A program made the translations under genes and the position numbers. Source: Polyangia bacterium (GTDB lineage: Bacteria > Myxococcota_A > Polyangia > Polyangiales > Sandaracinaceae). From it: a DNA stretch of 27,570 bases. Under the pieces are notes generated by a model. That model saw only the letters and a list, made by a program, of their open reading frames with translations, ran no database searches and was not told where the DNA came from. Below, in pieces: positions 1 through 6,434 of the stretch (position 1 is its first letter; every line of letters begins with the position of its first letter). The DNA lies in assembly GCA_030426845.1 (NCBI GenBank), contig JAUHXR010000096.1, positions 1 through 27,570 on the forward strand. Direction: 5' to 3'.

Positions 1-19
1 TCGACGACGAGGACCCTCA
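1..19 (-). CDS. 5' end of a response-regulator-type gene running off the window edge (probably CheB methylesterase); only about 6 codons visible (M-R-V-L-V-V-D)
   Basis: Reverse complement of 1-25 reads GGGAG-ATG-AGG-GTC-CTC-GTC-GTC-GA. That is an SD-like GGGAG followed by ATG and MRVLVVD, the canonical receiver-domain N-terminus. It lies immediately downstream of the cheR stop (TGA at 26-28). The cheB identity is inferred from position only. Confidence 0.3.
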
Positions 20-25
20 TCTCCC

Positions 26-901
26 TCACGGCGCCGTCCCCTCGTCGGGCGCGCGGGGGCGCCGGTAGACCATGTCGGTGCGCAGGTGGACCAGCTCGAA
101 GGCGGTCGACGTGTTGAGGAGCGACTCGCTGTGCCCGAGGAGCAGGTAGCCGCCGGGGTTGAGGCGCTCGTAGAACGACTCGATGACGCGCCGCCGCGCC
201 TCCACGTCGAAGTAGATGAGGACGTTGCGGCAGAACACCACGTCGGCGCGGCCGATCAGCGCGCTGCGGTCGCGGTCGAGGAGGTTGAGGTGGCCGAAGT
301 GGCACATCGCGCGGATCTGCGGGACGACCTGCCGCCCGTCCGGTGTGTCGGTGAAGTAGGGCTCGAAGCGCGGCGGCGTCGCCCGGAAGGACGACGGGCC
401 GTACACCGCGCGGCGCGCGGTCGAGAGGACGCGCCGGGAGATGTCGTTGCCGAAGACGCGCACGTCCCAGCCGTCGAAGAGCCCCGACTCCTGGATGAGG
501 ATCGCGACGCTGTAGGCCTCCTCGCCCGTCGAGCAGCCCGCGCTCCAGATGGTGAGGTTGCGTCGCCCCTCCGCGCTCAGACGGGCCTTCAGGTCGGGGA
601 GCAGCTCCCCGGCGAAGGCGGACAGCTGGTAGTCCTCGCGGAAGAAGTAGGTCTCGTTGGTGACGAGCGCGTCGACCGCCGCCTCCATCTCGGCCTTCGC
701 GTTCGGGTGGTAGAGGAGGTGGTGGTAGTACTCGGTGAAGTCGCGCAGGCCGAGCTCGCGGACGCGGTCGCGCAGCCGCCGCTCGAACACGTAGCGGATG
801 TCCGCCGCGAACTCCATGCCGCAAAAGTTGTTGATGAGCTCGCCGAGGAGGCGGAACTCGTCCGGGCTCAACCGCGGACCCGAGTCGAAGAGGATCGACA
901 C
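26..901 (-). CDS. cheR: Chemotaxis protein methyltransferase CheR
   Basis: The 291-aa ORF has the CheR hallmarks FFRE and IWSAGCSTGEEAYS (SAM-binding) and the CheR fold order throughout. The start codon is GTG at 901-899, directly after the TGA stop of the upstream HEAT gene (TGAGTG). Confidence 0.9.
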   Translation of the reverse strand: MSILFDSGPRLSPDEFRLLGELINNFCGMEFAADIRYVFERRLRDRVRELGLRDFTEYYHHLLYHPNAKAEMEAAVDALVTNETYFFREDYQLSAFAGELLPDLKARLSAEGRRNLTIWSAGCSTGEEAYSVAILIQESGLFDGWDVRVFGNDISRRVLSTARRAVYGPSSFRATPPRFEPYFTDTPDGRQVVPQIRAMCHFGHLNLLDRDRSALIGRADVVFCRNVLIYFDVEARRRVIESFYERLNPGGYLLLGHSESLLNTSTAFELVHLRTDMVYRRPRAPDEGTAP

Positions 902-3947: not shown

Positions 3948-6040
3948 CGCGCCGCCTCCGTCCGCTGGATGCGCACGTCGGCGATCGTCAGCTCGTCCTC
4001 GAGGATCGAGGGCGCGTCGAGCACCAGGACCACGCGCTGATCGCCGAGGTCGGTCGCGCCGGCGAAGCCGCGCGTGTCGCGGAGCGAGGGGCCGAGCTGC
4101 TTGATGATGATGTCCTGCTGCCCCTCGAGGCCCTGAACGACGAGCCCCAGGCGCTTCTGCCCGAGCGACGTCACGACGACGTACTCCTTGCTGGCCTGGT
4201 GCTCGCCCGGCCGCGGGCGGAGCTGGAAGAGCCGATCCAGCCGGCAGATCGGGAGCGTCGCGCCGCGGAGCGTGATGACCTCGCGGCCCTCGACCCGGCG
4301 CACGTCCAGCGGGTCGAGGAGCAACGCCTCCTGGACGACCGTGAGCGGGATGCAGAAGGCCCGGCCGACGACGCGGACGACCAGCGCGCTGATGATCGCG
4401 AGCGTGATCGGCAGCGTGATGGTGAACTTCGTGCCGACCCCGAGCTCGCTCTGGACGTCGACGACCCCGCCGAGCCGCGCGATGTGCGTCTTGACCACGT
4501 CCATGCCGACGCCGCGCCCGCTCAGATCGGTGATCTCGGTCGCGGTGCTCACACCCGGCAGGAAGATCAGCCCGAGCTTCTCGCCGCGGGCCATCTCGTT
4601 GCCCGCCTCGGGGCTCACCGCGCCACGATCGACCGCGCTCTTGAGGATGAGGTCCGCGTTCATCCCCGCGCCGTCGTCCTCGATCTCGATGACGACGTGG
4701 TTGCCCTTCTGGTACGCGTTGAGCGCGAGCGAGCCGGTCTTCGGCTTGCCCATGTCCTCGCGCGCGTCCGCTCGCTCGATCCCGTGATCGATCGCGTTGC
4801 GGATGATGTGCAGGAGCGGATCGGTCAGCTCCTCGACGATGAGCTTGTCCACCTCGGTCTCCGCGCCGGAGACGAGCAAGCGGACCTCCTTGCCGTGCTC
4901 GCGCGCGACCTGACGCACCGCGCGGCCGAGGCGGTCGAAGGTCTGCCCGAGGGGCACCATCCGCACGTCGAGGATGCCGTCCTGGAGCTCGTCGAGGTGC
5001 CGCTCGAAGCCGCGGTGGATCCGGTGCAGCTCGGCGCCCACTCCGCGCAGCTCGGGGGCCTGTCGCACCCGATCGAGGAGCTTCCCCACCGCGCTGCGCA
5101 CGATCGCGAGCTCGCCGACGACGTTCATCAGGTGGTCGAGCTTGGCGATGTCGACGCGTACGGTCTTCGCGACGCGCATCGACAGCGAGTCGGCGCTCAC
5201 CTCGCGCGCGGGCGCCTTCGGCGGCGCGGCGGTCGCGGGGTGGGCGGGCGCGGCGGGCGCGACGGCGCCGGGGGGCGGGATGGTCTTGGCCCCCGTCGAG
5301 CGGCCTCGCGCGACCGGCTCGAGCACCGCGCCCGGGCGATCGGCGAGGGCCTCGCGCAGCTCCTCCACCGCGACCCGGCTCGCGAGGATCACCTCGAGCT
5401 CGATCGAGTCGTCGTCGCCGCCCTCCATCGAGGGCAGGTACGTGATGATCTCGGCGAGCGGCTTGGCGCGCGCCTTGAGATCCTCGAGGTCGGTGTCGAT
5501 GCTCGCGAGCCCGAAGCTGAGCTGGAGCCGGTAGAGCGGCACCCCCTGCTCGATGTTCGTGCGCAGCCGGTGCTCCTCGTACTCGGTGAGCACCGAGAGC
5601 ACGCCCTCGTCGAGCTGGTACGGCCCGAAGCCCTCGTCTGCCTCGACCTTGGCCCCGACGAGCCGGTCGACCTGCGCCCGAAACACCCCGAGGTTCGGCG
5701 CCGGCGCGTCGGACGCGCTCGTGAGCAAGCGCTGCAGCACCTCGATGCCCTCGAAGAGGACGTCGAGGACCTCCTGGGTCAGCTCGACGCGCCCGAGCCG
5801 GAGGTTGTCGAGGAGGTCCTCGAGGACGTGCGAGACCTCGCCGAGATCGCCGAAGCCGAACATCCCCGCGATGCCCTTGAGCGTGTGCACGCCGCGGAAC
5901 ACCGAGTTGATCAGCTCGGGGTCGGGGCTGCCCGTCTTCTGCCCGTGGTCGAGCACGAGGAGATCCCGGGACAGGAGCTCGATGATCTCCTGCGCCTCCG
6001 CGACGAACTCGTCGCGGATCCCGTCCTCGACGTCGCTCAT
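3944..6040 (-). CDS. cheA: Chemotaxis histidine kinase CheA
   Basis: The 698-aa protein has an N-terminal HPt domain with phospho-His motif (SVFRGVHTLKGIAGMFGF), a dimerisation region, HATPase_c motifs (DDGAGMN, GRGVGMDVV, GVGTKF) and a C-terminal CheW-like domain. There is no fused receiver domain. Confidence 0.92.
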   Translation of the reverse strand: MSDVEDGIRDEFVAEAQEIIELLSRDLLVLDHGQKTGSPDPELINSVFRGVHTLKGIAGMFGFGDLGEVSHVLEDLLDNLRLGRVELTQEVLDVLFEGIEVLQRLLTSASDAPAPNLGVFRAQVDRLVGAKVEADEGFGPYQLDEGVLSVLTEYEEHRLRTNIEQGVPLYRLQLSFGLASIDTDLEDLKARAKPLAEIITYLPSMEGGDDDSIELEVILASRVAVEELREALADRPGAVLEPVARGRSTGAKTIPPPGAVAPAAPAHPATAAPPKAPAREVSADSLSMRVAKTVRVDIAKLDHLMNVVGELAIVRSAVGKLLDRVRQAPELRGVGAELHRIHRGFERHLDELQDGILDVRMVPLGQTFDRLGRAVRQVAREHGKEVRLLVSGAETEVDKLIVEELTDPLLHIIRNAIDHGIERADAREDMGKPKTGSLALNAYQKGNHVVIEIEDDGAGMNADLILKSAVDRGAVSPEAGNEMARGEKLGLIFLPGVSTATEITDLSGRGVGMDVVKTHIARLGGVVDVQSELGVGTKFTITLPITLAIISALVVRVVGRAFCIPLTVVQEALLLDPLDVRRVEGREVITLRGATLPICRLDRLFQLRPRPGEHQASKEYVVVTSLGQKRLGLVVQGLEGQQDIIIKQLGPSLRDTRGFAGATDLGDQRVVLVLDAPSILEDELTIADVRIQRTEAAR

Positions 6041-6050
6041 CCGTCGACCT

Positions 6051-6434
6051 TCATCCGGGAACCTTGGACGACAGGCGCAGCACCGCGCCCACGAGCTGCT
6101 CCGCGGTGAAGGGCTTGGCCAGGTAGTCGTCGGCGCCGAGCCCGAGCCCGCGCTCGCGGTCCTTGTCCGACGCCTCCGAGCTGATGATGAGGAGCGGGGT
6201 CGCGCGGTGCTTGGTGGACTCGCGCATGAACTTGATCAGCTCGAGCCCGTTCACGTCGGGCATGTTGATGTCGACGATCGCGAGCGCGAACTCCTCGCGC
6301 GGCAAGAGGCGCAACGCCTCGAACCCGCTCGCCGCCTCGACGACCTGAGCGACGTGCCCCCCTTCCTCGAGCGCGGCCCGCACGAAGGCGCGCATCGCGC
6401 TCGAGTCTTCGACGACCAGGATCCGGGCGATCAC
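6051..6434 (-). CDS. cheY: CheY-like single-domain response regulator
   Basis: The 127-aa receiver domain has VVEDS near the N-terminus, the phospho-acceptor context IVDINMPDVNG and a conserved K (AKPF). The start is GTG (CAC at 6432-6434). It lies 10 nt upstream of the cheA ATG. Confidence 0.85.
   Translation of the reverse strand: MIARILVVEDSSAMRAFVRAALEEGGHVAQVVEAASGFEALRLLPREEFALAIVDINMPDVNGLELIKFMRESTKHRATPLLIISSEASDKDRERGLGLGADDYLAKPFTAEQLVGAVLRLSSKVPG

Follow-up and report, generated by a model that had tools for sequence, protein, structure and literature searches.

The chemosensory genes at the start of the analysed DNA form a unit, cheY-cheA-cheW1-cheW2-HEAT-cheR-cheB, which is inherited as a single block across Myxococcota and from which a receptor gene is consistently missing. 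Given the published gene orders and protein lengths, the cluster looks like the already described Che8-type, or group beta, chemosensory type and not a new kind of system. With a probability of about 0.55, we read it as the core of the Che8-type pathway of a Sandaracinaceae-like myxobacterium, which would control a function other than motility, rely on MCPs encoded in trans and use the HEAT protein as a CheY-bound adaptor resembling Cpc7.

In the window (the whole stretch of 27,570 nt that was analysed), the seven genes run on the minus strand, with only the start of cheB included. Pfam matches and coordinates (Table 1) confirmed the gene order given in the initial annotation; the six che/HEAT genes are real, their matches lying far above chance. 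Throughout the operon, neighbouring genes overlap by at most 4 nt or lie at most 10 nt apart. A 10-nt gap separates cheY from cheA, cheA overlaps cheW1 at an ATGA, and cheW1 and cheW2 are 2 nt apart. The proposed start/stop coupling of the HEAT gene on both sides also holds: it shares a GTGA with cheW2, and its TGA is directly followed by the GTG of cheR, both genes being in one frame. The cheR stop in turn overlaps the GTG of cheB at 29-27 (GTGA), with an alternative ATG at 17-15. Such overlapping stop and start codons would be consistent with stoichiometric co-expression.

Table 1. Features of the che/HEAT operon and its upstream neighbours in the window
Feature	Position	Strand	Description
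cheB 5' end	1..29	-	REC + CheB methylesterase; leaves the window at its start
cheR	26..901	-	protein-glutamate O-methyltransferase, 291 aa; Pfam CheR 1.4e-53, CheR_N 2.5e-9
HEAT gene	902..2926	-	PBS-lyase-type alpha-solenoid, 674 aa, ~21 repeats; Pfam HEAT_2 1.3e-36, 7 stretches
cheW2	2923..3426	-	167 aa; GTG start after GAGGAGG; Pfam CheW 1.7e-31
cheW1	3429..3947	-	172 aa; ATG start; Pfam CheW 1e-31
cheA	3944..6040	-	698 aa; Pfam Hpt (P1), H-kinase_dim (P3), HATPase_c (P4), CheW-like (P5), 1e-15 to 7e-27
cheY	6051..6434	-	single-domain receiver, 127 aa, GTG start; Pfam Response_reg 3.3e-26
DUF971 / GBBH-like_N	6472..6822	-	small Cys/His protein, 116 aa; Pfam GBBH-like_N 5e-23
recO	6819..7577	-	Pfam RecO_N 4.6e-22, RecO_C 1.1e-12

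Among the Che proteins, CheY keeps the acidic pocket (E9, D10 and D55) together with S85 and K107. CheA carries neither a fused receiver nor a Pfam P2 match, and it matches NCBIfam CheA models at 4e-111 and 5e-107, both under the equivalog cut-offs. By Pfam, the 291-aa CheR has no TPR extension. The two CheW proteins are indeed paralogues, but not the product of the tandem duplication that their description as tandem genes might suggest. They share 25% identity and each has a separate orthologue in every related locus, and are therefore ancient paralogues.

Upstream of cheY, the DUF971 gene starts with a GTG overlapping the recO stop and ends 37 nt from the cheY start. It is a conserved neighbour, found at this place in many related loci, and possibly belongs to the che transcript; recO lies upstream of cheY in 60 of 66 related loci. 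For the genes beyond the window start we used an overlapping public contig from Logan (L001), the cheR product of which is identical to that of the window. There, cheR is followed with a 4-nt overlap by a 354-aa REC+CheB_methylest gene, and then by a coiled-coil/GAF protein, a second CheY-like receiver, trpF and a fragment of a PALP-domain gene. In this lineage the block is extended by the coiled-coil/GAF protein and the second receiver, and recO precedes it.

The HEAT gene proved to be a single gene, as the initial annotation held, encoding 674 residues; the 675 first reported counts the stop codon. In protein homologue searches, in which the best 120 matches were considered, the listed matches include full-length homologues of about 660–750 aa, indicating a large, length-constrained family and one gene, not two. 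A mechanical list of open reading frames places the start at 3178 (758 aa). However, alignments with homologues of 670–685 aa begin at the first residue of the 674-aa form, which supports the GTG at 2926 as the start. Comparison with the Minicystis rosea protein P0314 showed that the one apparent HEAT-CheR fusion, P0353 with 1114 aa, results from a frameshift artefact: the final ~130 residues of its HEAT part are out-of-frame and rich in Arg, Pro and Gly. It therefore gives no evidence of a fusion.

The AlphaFold2 model of the HEAT protein (pLDDT 94, pTM 0.79) is all-alpha, with 42 helices in ~21 repeats that match the PBS-lyase/alphaRep type. Its nearest solved folds are scaffolds, namely SF3B1, karyopherins, PP2A-A and CAND1, and it has no catalytic domain. 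Membership of the phycobiliprotein lyases or of NblB was rejected, since the scores against NblB (55.5 bits, cut-off 300), CpeY (24.9, cut-off 600) and CpcE (20.4, cut-off 330) are all far under the curated cut-offs. Of the operon's products, the HEAT protein evolves fastest, with 5% invariant columns against 26% for CheR (77 orthologues), 24% for CheA and 21% for CheB, and its conserved part consists of the N-terminal four to five repeats.

Relatives of the HEAT gene were confirmed by tblastn in at least 410 cases among 185,579 species-representative genomes, and the best 80 of these 410, from 80 Myxococcota genomes, were surveyed for their loci, with counts taken from loci with enough flank. 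In every case the HEAT gene has cheW2 on one side and cheR on the other (76/76 for each), and CheA (71/71), CheY (70/70) and CheB (70/70) are equally constant. The trailing parts are more variable, the second receiver being found in 64 of 68 loci and the coiled-coil/GAF protein in 25 of 68. Distant members at 31–34% identity also carry the core, as does the cultured Sorangium cellulosum So ce26 (CP012673.1); other cultured carriers are Polyangium and Minicystis. The 80 loci are labelled nearly all as Myxococcota, Polyangiales, Sandaracinaceae or Deltaproteobacteria, with a few titles of metagenome-assembled genomes generic or plainly mislabelled.

The receptor gene is missing from the cluster type as a whole. 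The initial annotation had noted no MCP gene in the 6.4 kb of the operon, and none was found there or among the larger open reading frames of the window by Pfam, nor in the whole window by tblastn with the Tsr signalling domain or a scan for the hairpin-tip motif. Beyond the window start, where the initial annotation advised looking for an MCP, there is none downstream of cheB on the Logan contig. Moreover, the 10-kb flanks on either side of 84 related loci (1.54 Mb in all) yielded no MCP signalling domain. The missing receptor gene is thus a fixed, conserved property of the cluster type and not an effect of the window edge. CheR and CheB nevertheless rank among the most constrained components, which argues for a real methyl-accepting substrate somewhere. 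As for the output, no flagellar gene was found by Pfam among the larger open reading frames of the window, and the features of a Frz system (a CheA-receiver fusion, the FrzCD receptor and a CheR-TPR) are lacking, given a CheA without receiver, a CheR without TPR and no MCP. Myxococcota are non-flagellated gliders; the pathway is therefore most unlikely to be a standard flagellar one, and its output is probably non-flagellar.

Group beta was defined by the presence of cheA, cheW, cheR and cheB and the absence of an mcp gene (PMC2577667), and this is the composition found here. In M. xanthus, the Che8 cluster (MXAN_4751-4759), the equivalent of the delta-proteobacterial group beta clusters (Tran et al. 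2008; Thomas et al. 2008; Moine et al. 2014), comprises cheY8b, cheA8, cheW8b, cheW8a, two unlisted genes, cheR8, cheB8 and cheY8a, with no MCP (PMC3945109). Window and Logan contig together reproduce the order cheY-cheA-cheW-cheW-x-cheR-cheB-cheY from MXAN_4759 to MXAN_4751, with the GAF gene inserted before the last cheY. The likeness extends to a CheA without fused receiver, a CheR of ~290 aa without TPR, a CheB of ~350 aa and a range within Myxococcota/delta-proteobacteria, to which our host belongs. Che8 likewise has no MCP in C. coralloides (PMC6194562), and PMC2330069 reports conservation of the che8 cluster in Anaeromyxobacter dehalogenans 2CP-C and in G. sulfurreducens. The type has been reported in Cystobacterineae (Myxococcus, Stigmatella, Anaeromyxobacter) and Nannocystineae (Plesiocystis), and we find it in Polyangia including Sorangium. 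It may be the sole chemosensory system of some lineages. It differs here in the coiled-coil/GAF gene between cheB and the second receiver, and in a CheA of 698 aa against the 862 aa of CheA8 in M. xanthus, while MXAN_4754 and MXAN_4755, the two unlisted genes, correspond to the HEAT gene by position alone.

The initial annotation had instead pointed to Che7. That comparison stands for the PBS-lyase-type HEAT protein encoded in the cluster, for a CheA of similar length without fused receiver (683 aa in Che7) and for a short CheR without TPR. It fails as the nearest match, because Che7 has only one CheW and encodes a cytoplasmic receptor, Mcp7, within the cluster, whereas here the position of the MCP is taken by a second CheW and another cheY follows cheB. 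Published descriptions of Che8/group beta fit better, in the order of the genes as well as in the pair of CheWs, the missing MCP and the receiver at the end. The fatty-acid desaturase Des7 belongs to Che7, and a desaturase, for which a search downstream had been advised, is not among the GAF protein, receiver, trpF and PALP fragment after cheB. In Che7, cpc7 probably adjoins cheR, since one locus tag is skipped from cheR7 (MXAN_6960) to mcp7 (MXAN_6962). The HEAT protein Cpc7 binds CheY7 (Darnell et al. 2014, cited in PMC11514114) and is described with 27 helices against 42 predicted here, and Che7 and Che8 cluster together in a tree of Che proteins (PMC3945109). The Cpc7 analogy may be taken as a reasonable lead. 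The earlier description of a non-canonical module was right that receptor and output are unknowns; the module itself is not novel, and for Che8 this is a known open problem.

Other systems offer partial parallels. In G. sulfurreducens, CheW and CheA of che cluster 5 (Esn; Chan et al. 2017), taken as group beta, work with GSU1704, a cytoplasmic GAF-MCP that is an orphan encoded outside the cluster; the output is electrode colonisation and cyclic-dinucleotide signalling, not motility (PMC5585712). The system serves as a functioning example of receptors encoded in trans, although that cluster has a ParA-like ATPase (GSU2221), absent here, and belongs to a different phylum-level lineage. The haloarchaeal OE2401F, a stand-alone HEAT_PBS repeat protein in a che/fla region, interacts with CheD and CheF1 and is needed for the signal to pass on beyond CheY (Schlesner et al. 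2009); the system is archaellum-linked, with CheF/DUF439, and the only demonstrated homology is in the repeat type. CheR-TPR fusions such as FrzF also tie an alpha-solenoid to CheR in non-flagellar pathways, whereas here the solenoid is of HEAT type, with ~21 repeats, and separately encoded.

We propose a putative model for signalling through this cluster. Signals would enter through one or more MCPs, assumed to be encoded elsewhere in the genome, which would assemble into arrays together with CheA and both of the divergent CheWs and be adapted by CheR and CheB. CheA would phosphorylate CheY, the second receiver and CheB. The HEAT solenoid is most likely a protein-binding adaptor of the pathway, with its N-terminal four to five repeats as the likely docking surface; by analogy with Cpc7, it may be the partner of phosphorylated single-domain CheY and relay the signal to effectors. 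The output might be another cellular function, e.g., matrix production, development or stress response. The invariable position of the HEAT gene beside cheR would be just as compatible with a role linked to CheR. One distant locus (L083) has the receiver fused to CheA, an arrangement awkward for a freely diffusing CheY that carries the signal to the HEAT protein.

Alternatively, the solenoid might partner the adaptation enzymes and not CheY, standing in, as the product of its own gene, for the TPR domain that is fused to other myxobacterial CheR proteins; it would then dock CheR, and perhaps CheB, onto trans receptors or control which sites are methylated. This reading, which we hold to be possible but unlikely, would account for a HEAT gene always directly 5' of cheR, at -4 to +1 nt in 74 of 78 loci and in the window in the same frame with a single TGA between, and for a CheR that is short and without TPR. 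According to PMC3945109 (Table 3), M. xanthus FrzF, CheR3, CheR4 and CheR6 carry TPR, none is listed for CheR5, and CheR7 (273 aa) and CheR8 (290 aa) have none; a HEAT gene is known from Che7, and in Che8 the two unlisted genes lie at that position. Furthermore, the block from the two CheWs through HEAT to CheR and CheB is kept even in loci that have lost the trailing receiver and the GAF protein. However, the HEAT gene is coupled to cheW2 just as tightly, and Cpc7, the sole known experimental precedent for a HEAT protein of a bacterial che cluster, binds CheY and not CheR.

The coupling to cheW2, whose 4-nt GTGA overlap is possible in 71 of 79 loci as a conserved junction pattern, would also suit a structural core subunit, which with the two CheWs organises CheA in a receptor-poor or receptor-free cytoplasmic complex and partly replaces the scaffolding by MCPs. 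The lack of an MCP in or near the cluster, the resemblance of the fold to large assembly scaffolds and the mere 2–5 MCPs in each Sorangiineae or Nannocystineae genome (PMC6194562) agree with this. We consider it improbable nonetheless: the strong conservation of CheR and CheB implies a methyl-accepting receptor, and the HEAT protein, without an MCP-type methylation motif or a conserved Glu/Gln pair, is not itself the substrate; the presumably related Geobacter cluster binds an orphan MCP through its CheW and CheA; and a core lattice component is rarely the fastest-evolving one. It is highly improbable that the HEAT gene encodes an enzyme-like PBS-lyase relative or is an unrelated passenger of the operon. 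The weak similarity to NblB, CpcE and CpeY, and to the CpcE/F lyase 5n3u, reflects a shared repeat type only, at 20–55 bits against cut-offs of 300–600, and the host, judged from its taxonomy, is no phototroph. A passenger would not be so retained, given that each of the 76 loci, deeply diverged as they are, has the gene between cheW2 and cheR. The reading of the HEAT protein as a CheY-bound adaptor with trans-encoded receptors is the one we prefer.

In summary, this study identifies the HEAT solenoid, of roughly 675–750 aa, as a constant and tightly coupled part of the module, a context shown by all 80 surveyed loci, and establishes the absence of a receptor gene as a fixed cluster property. 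These findings overturn nothing but should be useful to the field of myxobacterial signalling. The conserved N-terminal repeats are a concrete target for mutagenesis, and Sorangium cellulosum, Polyangium and Minicystis are cultured hosts for experiments, as would be M. xanthus if MXAN_4754 or MXAN_4755 is the orthologue. More speculatively, and in our view doubtfully, the solenoid could serve Che8-type pathways as an obligatory eighth core component, in a role absent from model chemotaxis, either as a CheR/CheB docking platform for scattered receptors or as the lattice organiser of a receptor-poor cytoplasmic array. If so, its co-inheritance with the two CheWs would define a distinct array architecture across Myxococcota.

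The stretch opens with a compact chemosensory cluster on the minus strand, in which Pfam assigned every che gene with E-values of 1e-15 to 1e-54. The gene set and order proposed in the initial annotation, cheY-cheA-cheW1-cheW2-HEAT-cheR-(cheB), are thus borne out by the ORF coordinates and domain matches. So is the start/stop coupling of the HEAT gene to both neighbors, given a GTGA overlap at the cheW2/HEAT junction and a TGA immediately followed by a GTG in the same frame at the HEAT/cheR junction. Furthermore, cheA and cheW1 share an ATGA overlap, cheR and cheB a GTGA overlap, and the remaining gaps are 2 nt (cheW1/cheW2) and 10 nt (cheY/cheA). 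A scan of positions 1–9400 revealed no promoters or terminators, although its AT-rich sigma-70 consensus says little at the ~73% GC of the window. The two CheW proteins share only 25% identity, both have separate orthologues at all related loci, and they are old paralogues as opposed to products of a recent tandem duplication.

Features of the che cluster and its flanks (plain positions refer to the window; L001 is an overlapping public contig running past the window start)
Feature	Position	Strand	Product and remarks
PALP-domain gene fragment	L001, after trpF		
trpF	L001, after second receiver		
Second single-domain receiver	L001:3608-3982, just beyond window start		124 aa
Coiled-coil/GAF protein	L001:2708-3574, between cheB and second receiver		288 aa
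cheB	L001, directly after cheR		354 aa, receiver and methylesterase
cheB, first codons	start 29 or 17, on to window edge	minus	
cheR	26-901	minus	291 aa, Pfam
HEAT-repeat gene	902-2926	minus	674 aa, Pfam HEAT_2 1.3e-36 in seven stretches
cheW2	2923-3426	minus	167 aa, Pfam
cheW1	3429-3947	minus	172 aa, Pfam
cheA	3944-6040	minus	698 aa, Pfam
cheY	6051-6434	minus	127 aa, Pfam
DUF971 gene	upstream of cheY; with recO 6472-7577	minus	small, GBBH-like_N, CPC..HC motif; stop 37 nt from cheY start
recO	upstream of DUF971 gene	minus	GTGA overlap with DUF971 gene
Crp-like cNMP-binding regulator (apparent)	~9227-9900	minus	
Ser/Thr protein kinase (apparent)	kinase domain ~10040-10820	plus	

Scanning 185,579 species, each represented by a single genome, yielded 410 confirmed relatives, and the window proteins were mapped onto the 80 closest loci. 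The order cheY-cheA-cheW1-cheW2-HEAT-cheR-cheB forms an invariant block in these loci: wherever the flank sufficed, CheW2 and CheR (76/76 each), CheW1 (73/73), CheA (71/71), CheY and CheB (70/70 each) were all present. The second receiver occurs in 64/68 loci and the GAF gene in 25/68. In 60/66 related loci recO precedes cheY, which makes co-transcription of the che genes with this DNA-repair gene possible. The (Y)A-W-W-HEAT-R-B core is kept in distant members (31–34% identity) and in Sorangium cellulosum So ce26, from all of which recO, the GAF gene and the second receiver are absent. With the choice of start biased to the one nearest the stop, a start codon giving a 4-nt overlap with the cheW2 stop is available in 71/79 loci, and the HEAT/cheR spacing is −4 to +1 nt in 74/78. 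Invariant columns account for 26% of CheR, 24% of CheA, 21% of CheB, 14%–15% of the CheWs and receivers, and 5% of HEAT. In one distant member (L083:6604-9018), CheA bears an N-terminal CheY-like receiver within a single 804-aa REC-Hpt-dimerisation-HATPase-CheW protein, beside an unchanged W-W-HEAT-R-B block.

Synteny with a distant relative, L082, reaches beyond the che genes to window positions 7682-9240 and 15712-20629, both on the minus strand. The common order comprises a fused homocysteine S-methyltransferase/MTHFR gene, a 278-aa gene, two oligopeptide-type ABC ATPases, a TPR protein, an HTH_25 protein and recO. The window differs by an insertion at 9320-15604 that separates the ABC genes from the TPR gene and contains the kinase listed above together with a PEGA/TPR gene and an FG-GAP repeat gene. 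Mechanical ORFs of ~800 aa overlap on both strands at 9227-11707, where the true genes appear to be the Crp-like regulator and the Ser/Thr protein kinase, arranged head to head.

The HEAT ORF is one real gene and belongs to a defined family; the alternative that it comprises two genes is contradicted by end-to-end homologues and the solenoid model. A protein search returned full-length homologues of 670–705 aa with identities down to ~31%, labeled, where named, as Sandaracinaceae, Polyangiaceae and Myxococcales. When 1.84 billion cluster representatives were searched with a profile, more than 130 of the best 150 matches aligned end to end in a single stretch of 660–750 aa. With a distant member as the query, a further search also matched Sorangium, Polyangium and Minicystis, which are in culture; no Myxococcus entry was among the matches listed in the protein, cluster and representative searches. 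The AlphaFold2 model, built from a 22-sequence alignment, has a mean pLDDT of 94 and a pTM of 0.79, and its 42 helices without any strand correspond to a predicted ~21 HEAT repeats. Foldseek against the PDB matched the model only to large, generic scaffold solenoids (SF3B1, karyopherins, PP2A-A and CAND1) at 12%–15% identity, which bears out the HEAT/ARM fold class but goes no further. Conservation, which in part reflects the repeat consensus itself, is concentrated in the first ~210 residues (R16, R17, D41, W44-R47, E49, N76, G78, R80 and N81), with a second, weaker patch at 470–530 and around 622–628. Antisense to this Ala-rich gene runs a plus-strand ORF at 1127-3037 of 637 codons with a gene-like codon-position GC of 0.93/0.55/0.89. 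Nothing speaks for its being a gene, and it was set aside, as homology and synteny all back the minus-strand frame; ORF length and GC3 are misleading in this genome.

The cheR product is unchanged on L001 (5.2 kb). Downstream of cheB, where the initial annotation had suggested looking for an MCP gene, this contig encodes the GAF protein, the second receiver, trpF and the PALP-domain fragment. The GAF protein combines an N-terminal coiled coil of ~100 residues with a C-terminal GAF domain, and has no NCBIfam match and no PDB sequence match. It was rejected as a degenerate MCP, since the coiled coil is generic, the MCP hairpin-tip motif is absent and Pfam gives only GAF. The two receivers are 42% identical; the second appears closer to E. 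coli CheY, scoring 88 bits on the NCBIfam CheY model against 70 for the first. Compared with the copy of the window lineage, the second receiver retains 82%–97% identity in most of the 25 GAF-carrying loci (median 86%) and drops to 75%–79% in three, while HEAT identity at these loci is down to 36%–67% and that of CheA/CheY to ~60%. In the 55 loci without the GAF gene, the second receiver shows only ~58% identity. This difference points to a strongly constrained partner of the second receiver, for which the GAF protein is a candidate.

The absence of an MCP gene, already remarked for the first 6.4 kb, holds on a wider scale. In 1.54 Mb comprising the window and 84 loci with flanks of at most 10 kb on either side, data that contain no positive control, neither tblastn with the E. 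coli Tsr signaling domain (best E-value 1.4) nor a regular-expression search for the hairpin tip of MCPs gave a match. Precomputed Pfam annotations of five loci list no MCPsignal gene, and the larger ORFs scanned in the rest of the 27.6-kb window include no MCP. Because the MCP tip is normally easily detected, we take the absence from the cluster neighborhood as established. CheR and CheB rank among the members under the strongest constraint, and we read this constraint as evidence for a methyl-accepting substrate elsewhere in the genome. The HEAT protein itself was rejected as this substrate: the window copy lacks the motif [ASTG]xx[EQ][EQ]xx[ASTG][ASTG], and no Glu/Gln pair is conserved in >70% of 79 orthologues.

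The cluster agrees feature by feature with the published Che8 pattern. In M. xanthus, Che8 comprises CheY8b (MXAN_4759, 124 aa), CheA8 (MXAN_4758, 862 aa, no fused receiver), CheW8b (MXAN_4757, 188 aa), CheW8a (MXAN_4756, 174 aa), the unlisted MXAN_4755 and MXAN_4754, CheR8 (MXAN_4753, 290 aa, no TPR), CheB8 (MXAN_4752, 345 aa) and CheY8a (MXAN_4751, 126 aa), with no MCP listed (Moine et al. 2014, PMC3945109). Corallococcus Che8 likewise lacks an MCP (PMC6194562). Such "group beta" clusters were reported by Tran et al. in Geobacter, Stigmatella, Anaeromyxobacter, Plesiocystis and M. xanthus (PMC2577667), and che8 is conserved in Anaeromyxobacter dehalogenans 2CP-C and G. sulfurreducens (Thomas et al. 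2008, PMC2330069). Look-ups of MXAN_4754/4755 and GSU2215-2218 found nothing. In contrast to the two CheWs and missing MCP of the window cluster, M. xanthus Che7 combines a single CheW with a receptor of its own, Mcp7; Che7 and Che8 group together in the published tree (PMC3945109). The cluster is therefore a further member of a published type, better filed, by published gene order and lengths only, as Che8 than as Che7. Accordingly, the initially drawn analogy with Cpc7, the HEAT protein of Che7, stands in part: a HEAT protein in a che cluster is common to both, but Che7 is a sister system. A locus-tag gap suggests that the HEAT gene of Che7, too, probably adjoins cheR.

For the role of the HEAT protein there is a second reading beside the best model given below. 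With a gene that invariably adjoins cheR, it could be a solenoid that partners CheR/CheB from a gene of its own. In line with this reading, FrzF, CheR3, CheR4 and CheR6 of M. xanthus have TPR domains whereas CheR7 and CheR8 do not (PMC3945109). However, the search for a supporting fusion produced a single apparent HEAT-CheR protein, P0353 (1114 aa, Minicystis MAG, L086:10001-13345, annotated "CheR family methyltransferase"), which is a frameshift or assembly artefact: compared with P0314 of Minicystis rosea, its last ~130 HEAT residues are out of frame, Arg/Pro/Gly-rich and run into cheR. A core scaffold is less likely. Also less likely is a passenger or a lyase, with repeats of the PBS-lyase/alphaRep type by sequence but bilin-lyase and NblB family models scoring 20–55 bits against cut-offs of 300–600.

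Our best model, by analogy, is a non-motility pathway with a Cpc7-like HEAT adaptor, and it combines facts from several systems. Che8 function in M. xanthus is reported as unknown; in pull-downs CheA8 was recovered together with an orphan receiver regulating groEL genes, on which it also has an effect (PMC9040617). In G. sulfurreducens, CheW (GSU2220) and CheA (GSU2222), whose cluster is taken to be group-beta cluster 5, are needed for electrode colonisation and interact in two-hybrid assays with an orphan cytoplasmic GAF-MCP encoded elsewhere (PMC5585712). Cpc7 is described as a HEAT protein binding CheY7 (PMC11514114), and in haloarchaea signaling downstream of CheY requires a HEAT_PBS protein from the che region (PMC2666748). 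In this putative pathway, MCPs encoded in trans would act with CheA and the two CheWs, CheR and CheB would provide adaptation, the two single-domain receivers would be the outputs, and the HEAT solenoid would serve as a Cpc7-like adaptor for phosphorylated CheY.

Our comparison of the 80 closest of 410 relatives, together with the MCP scan of 84 loci, adds to the published picture by showing that, across Myxococcota, both the large HEAT solenoid and the lack of a receptor gene are constant traits of the module that are inherited together.
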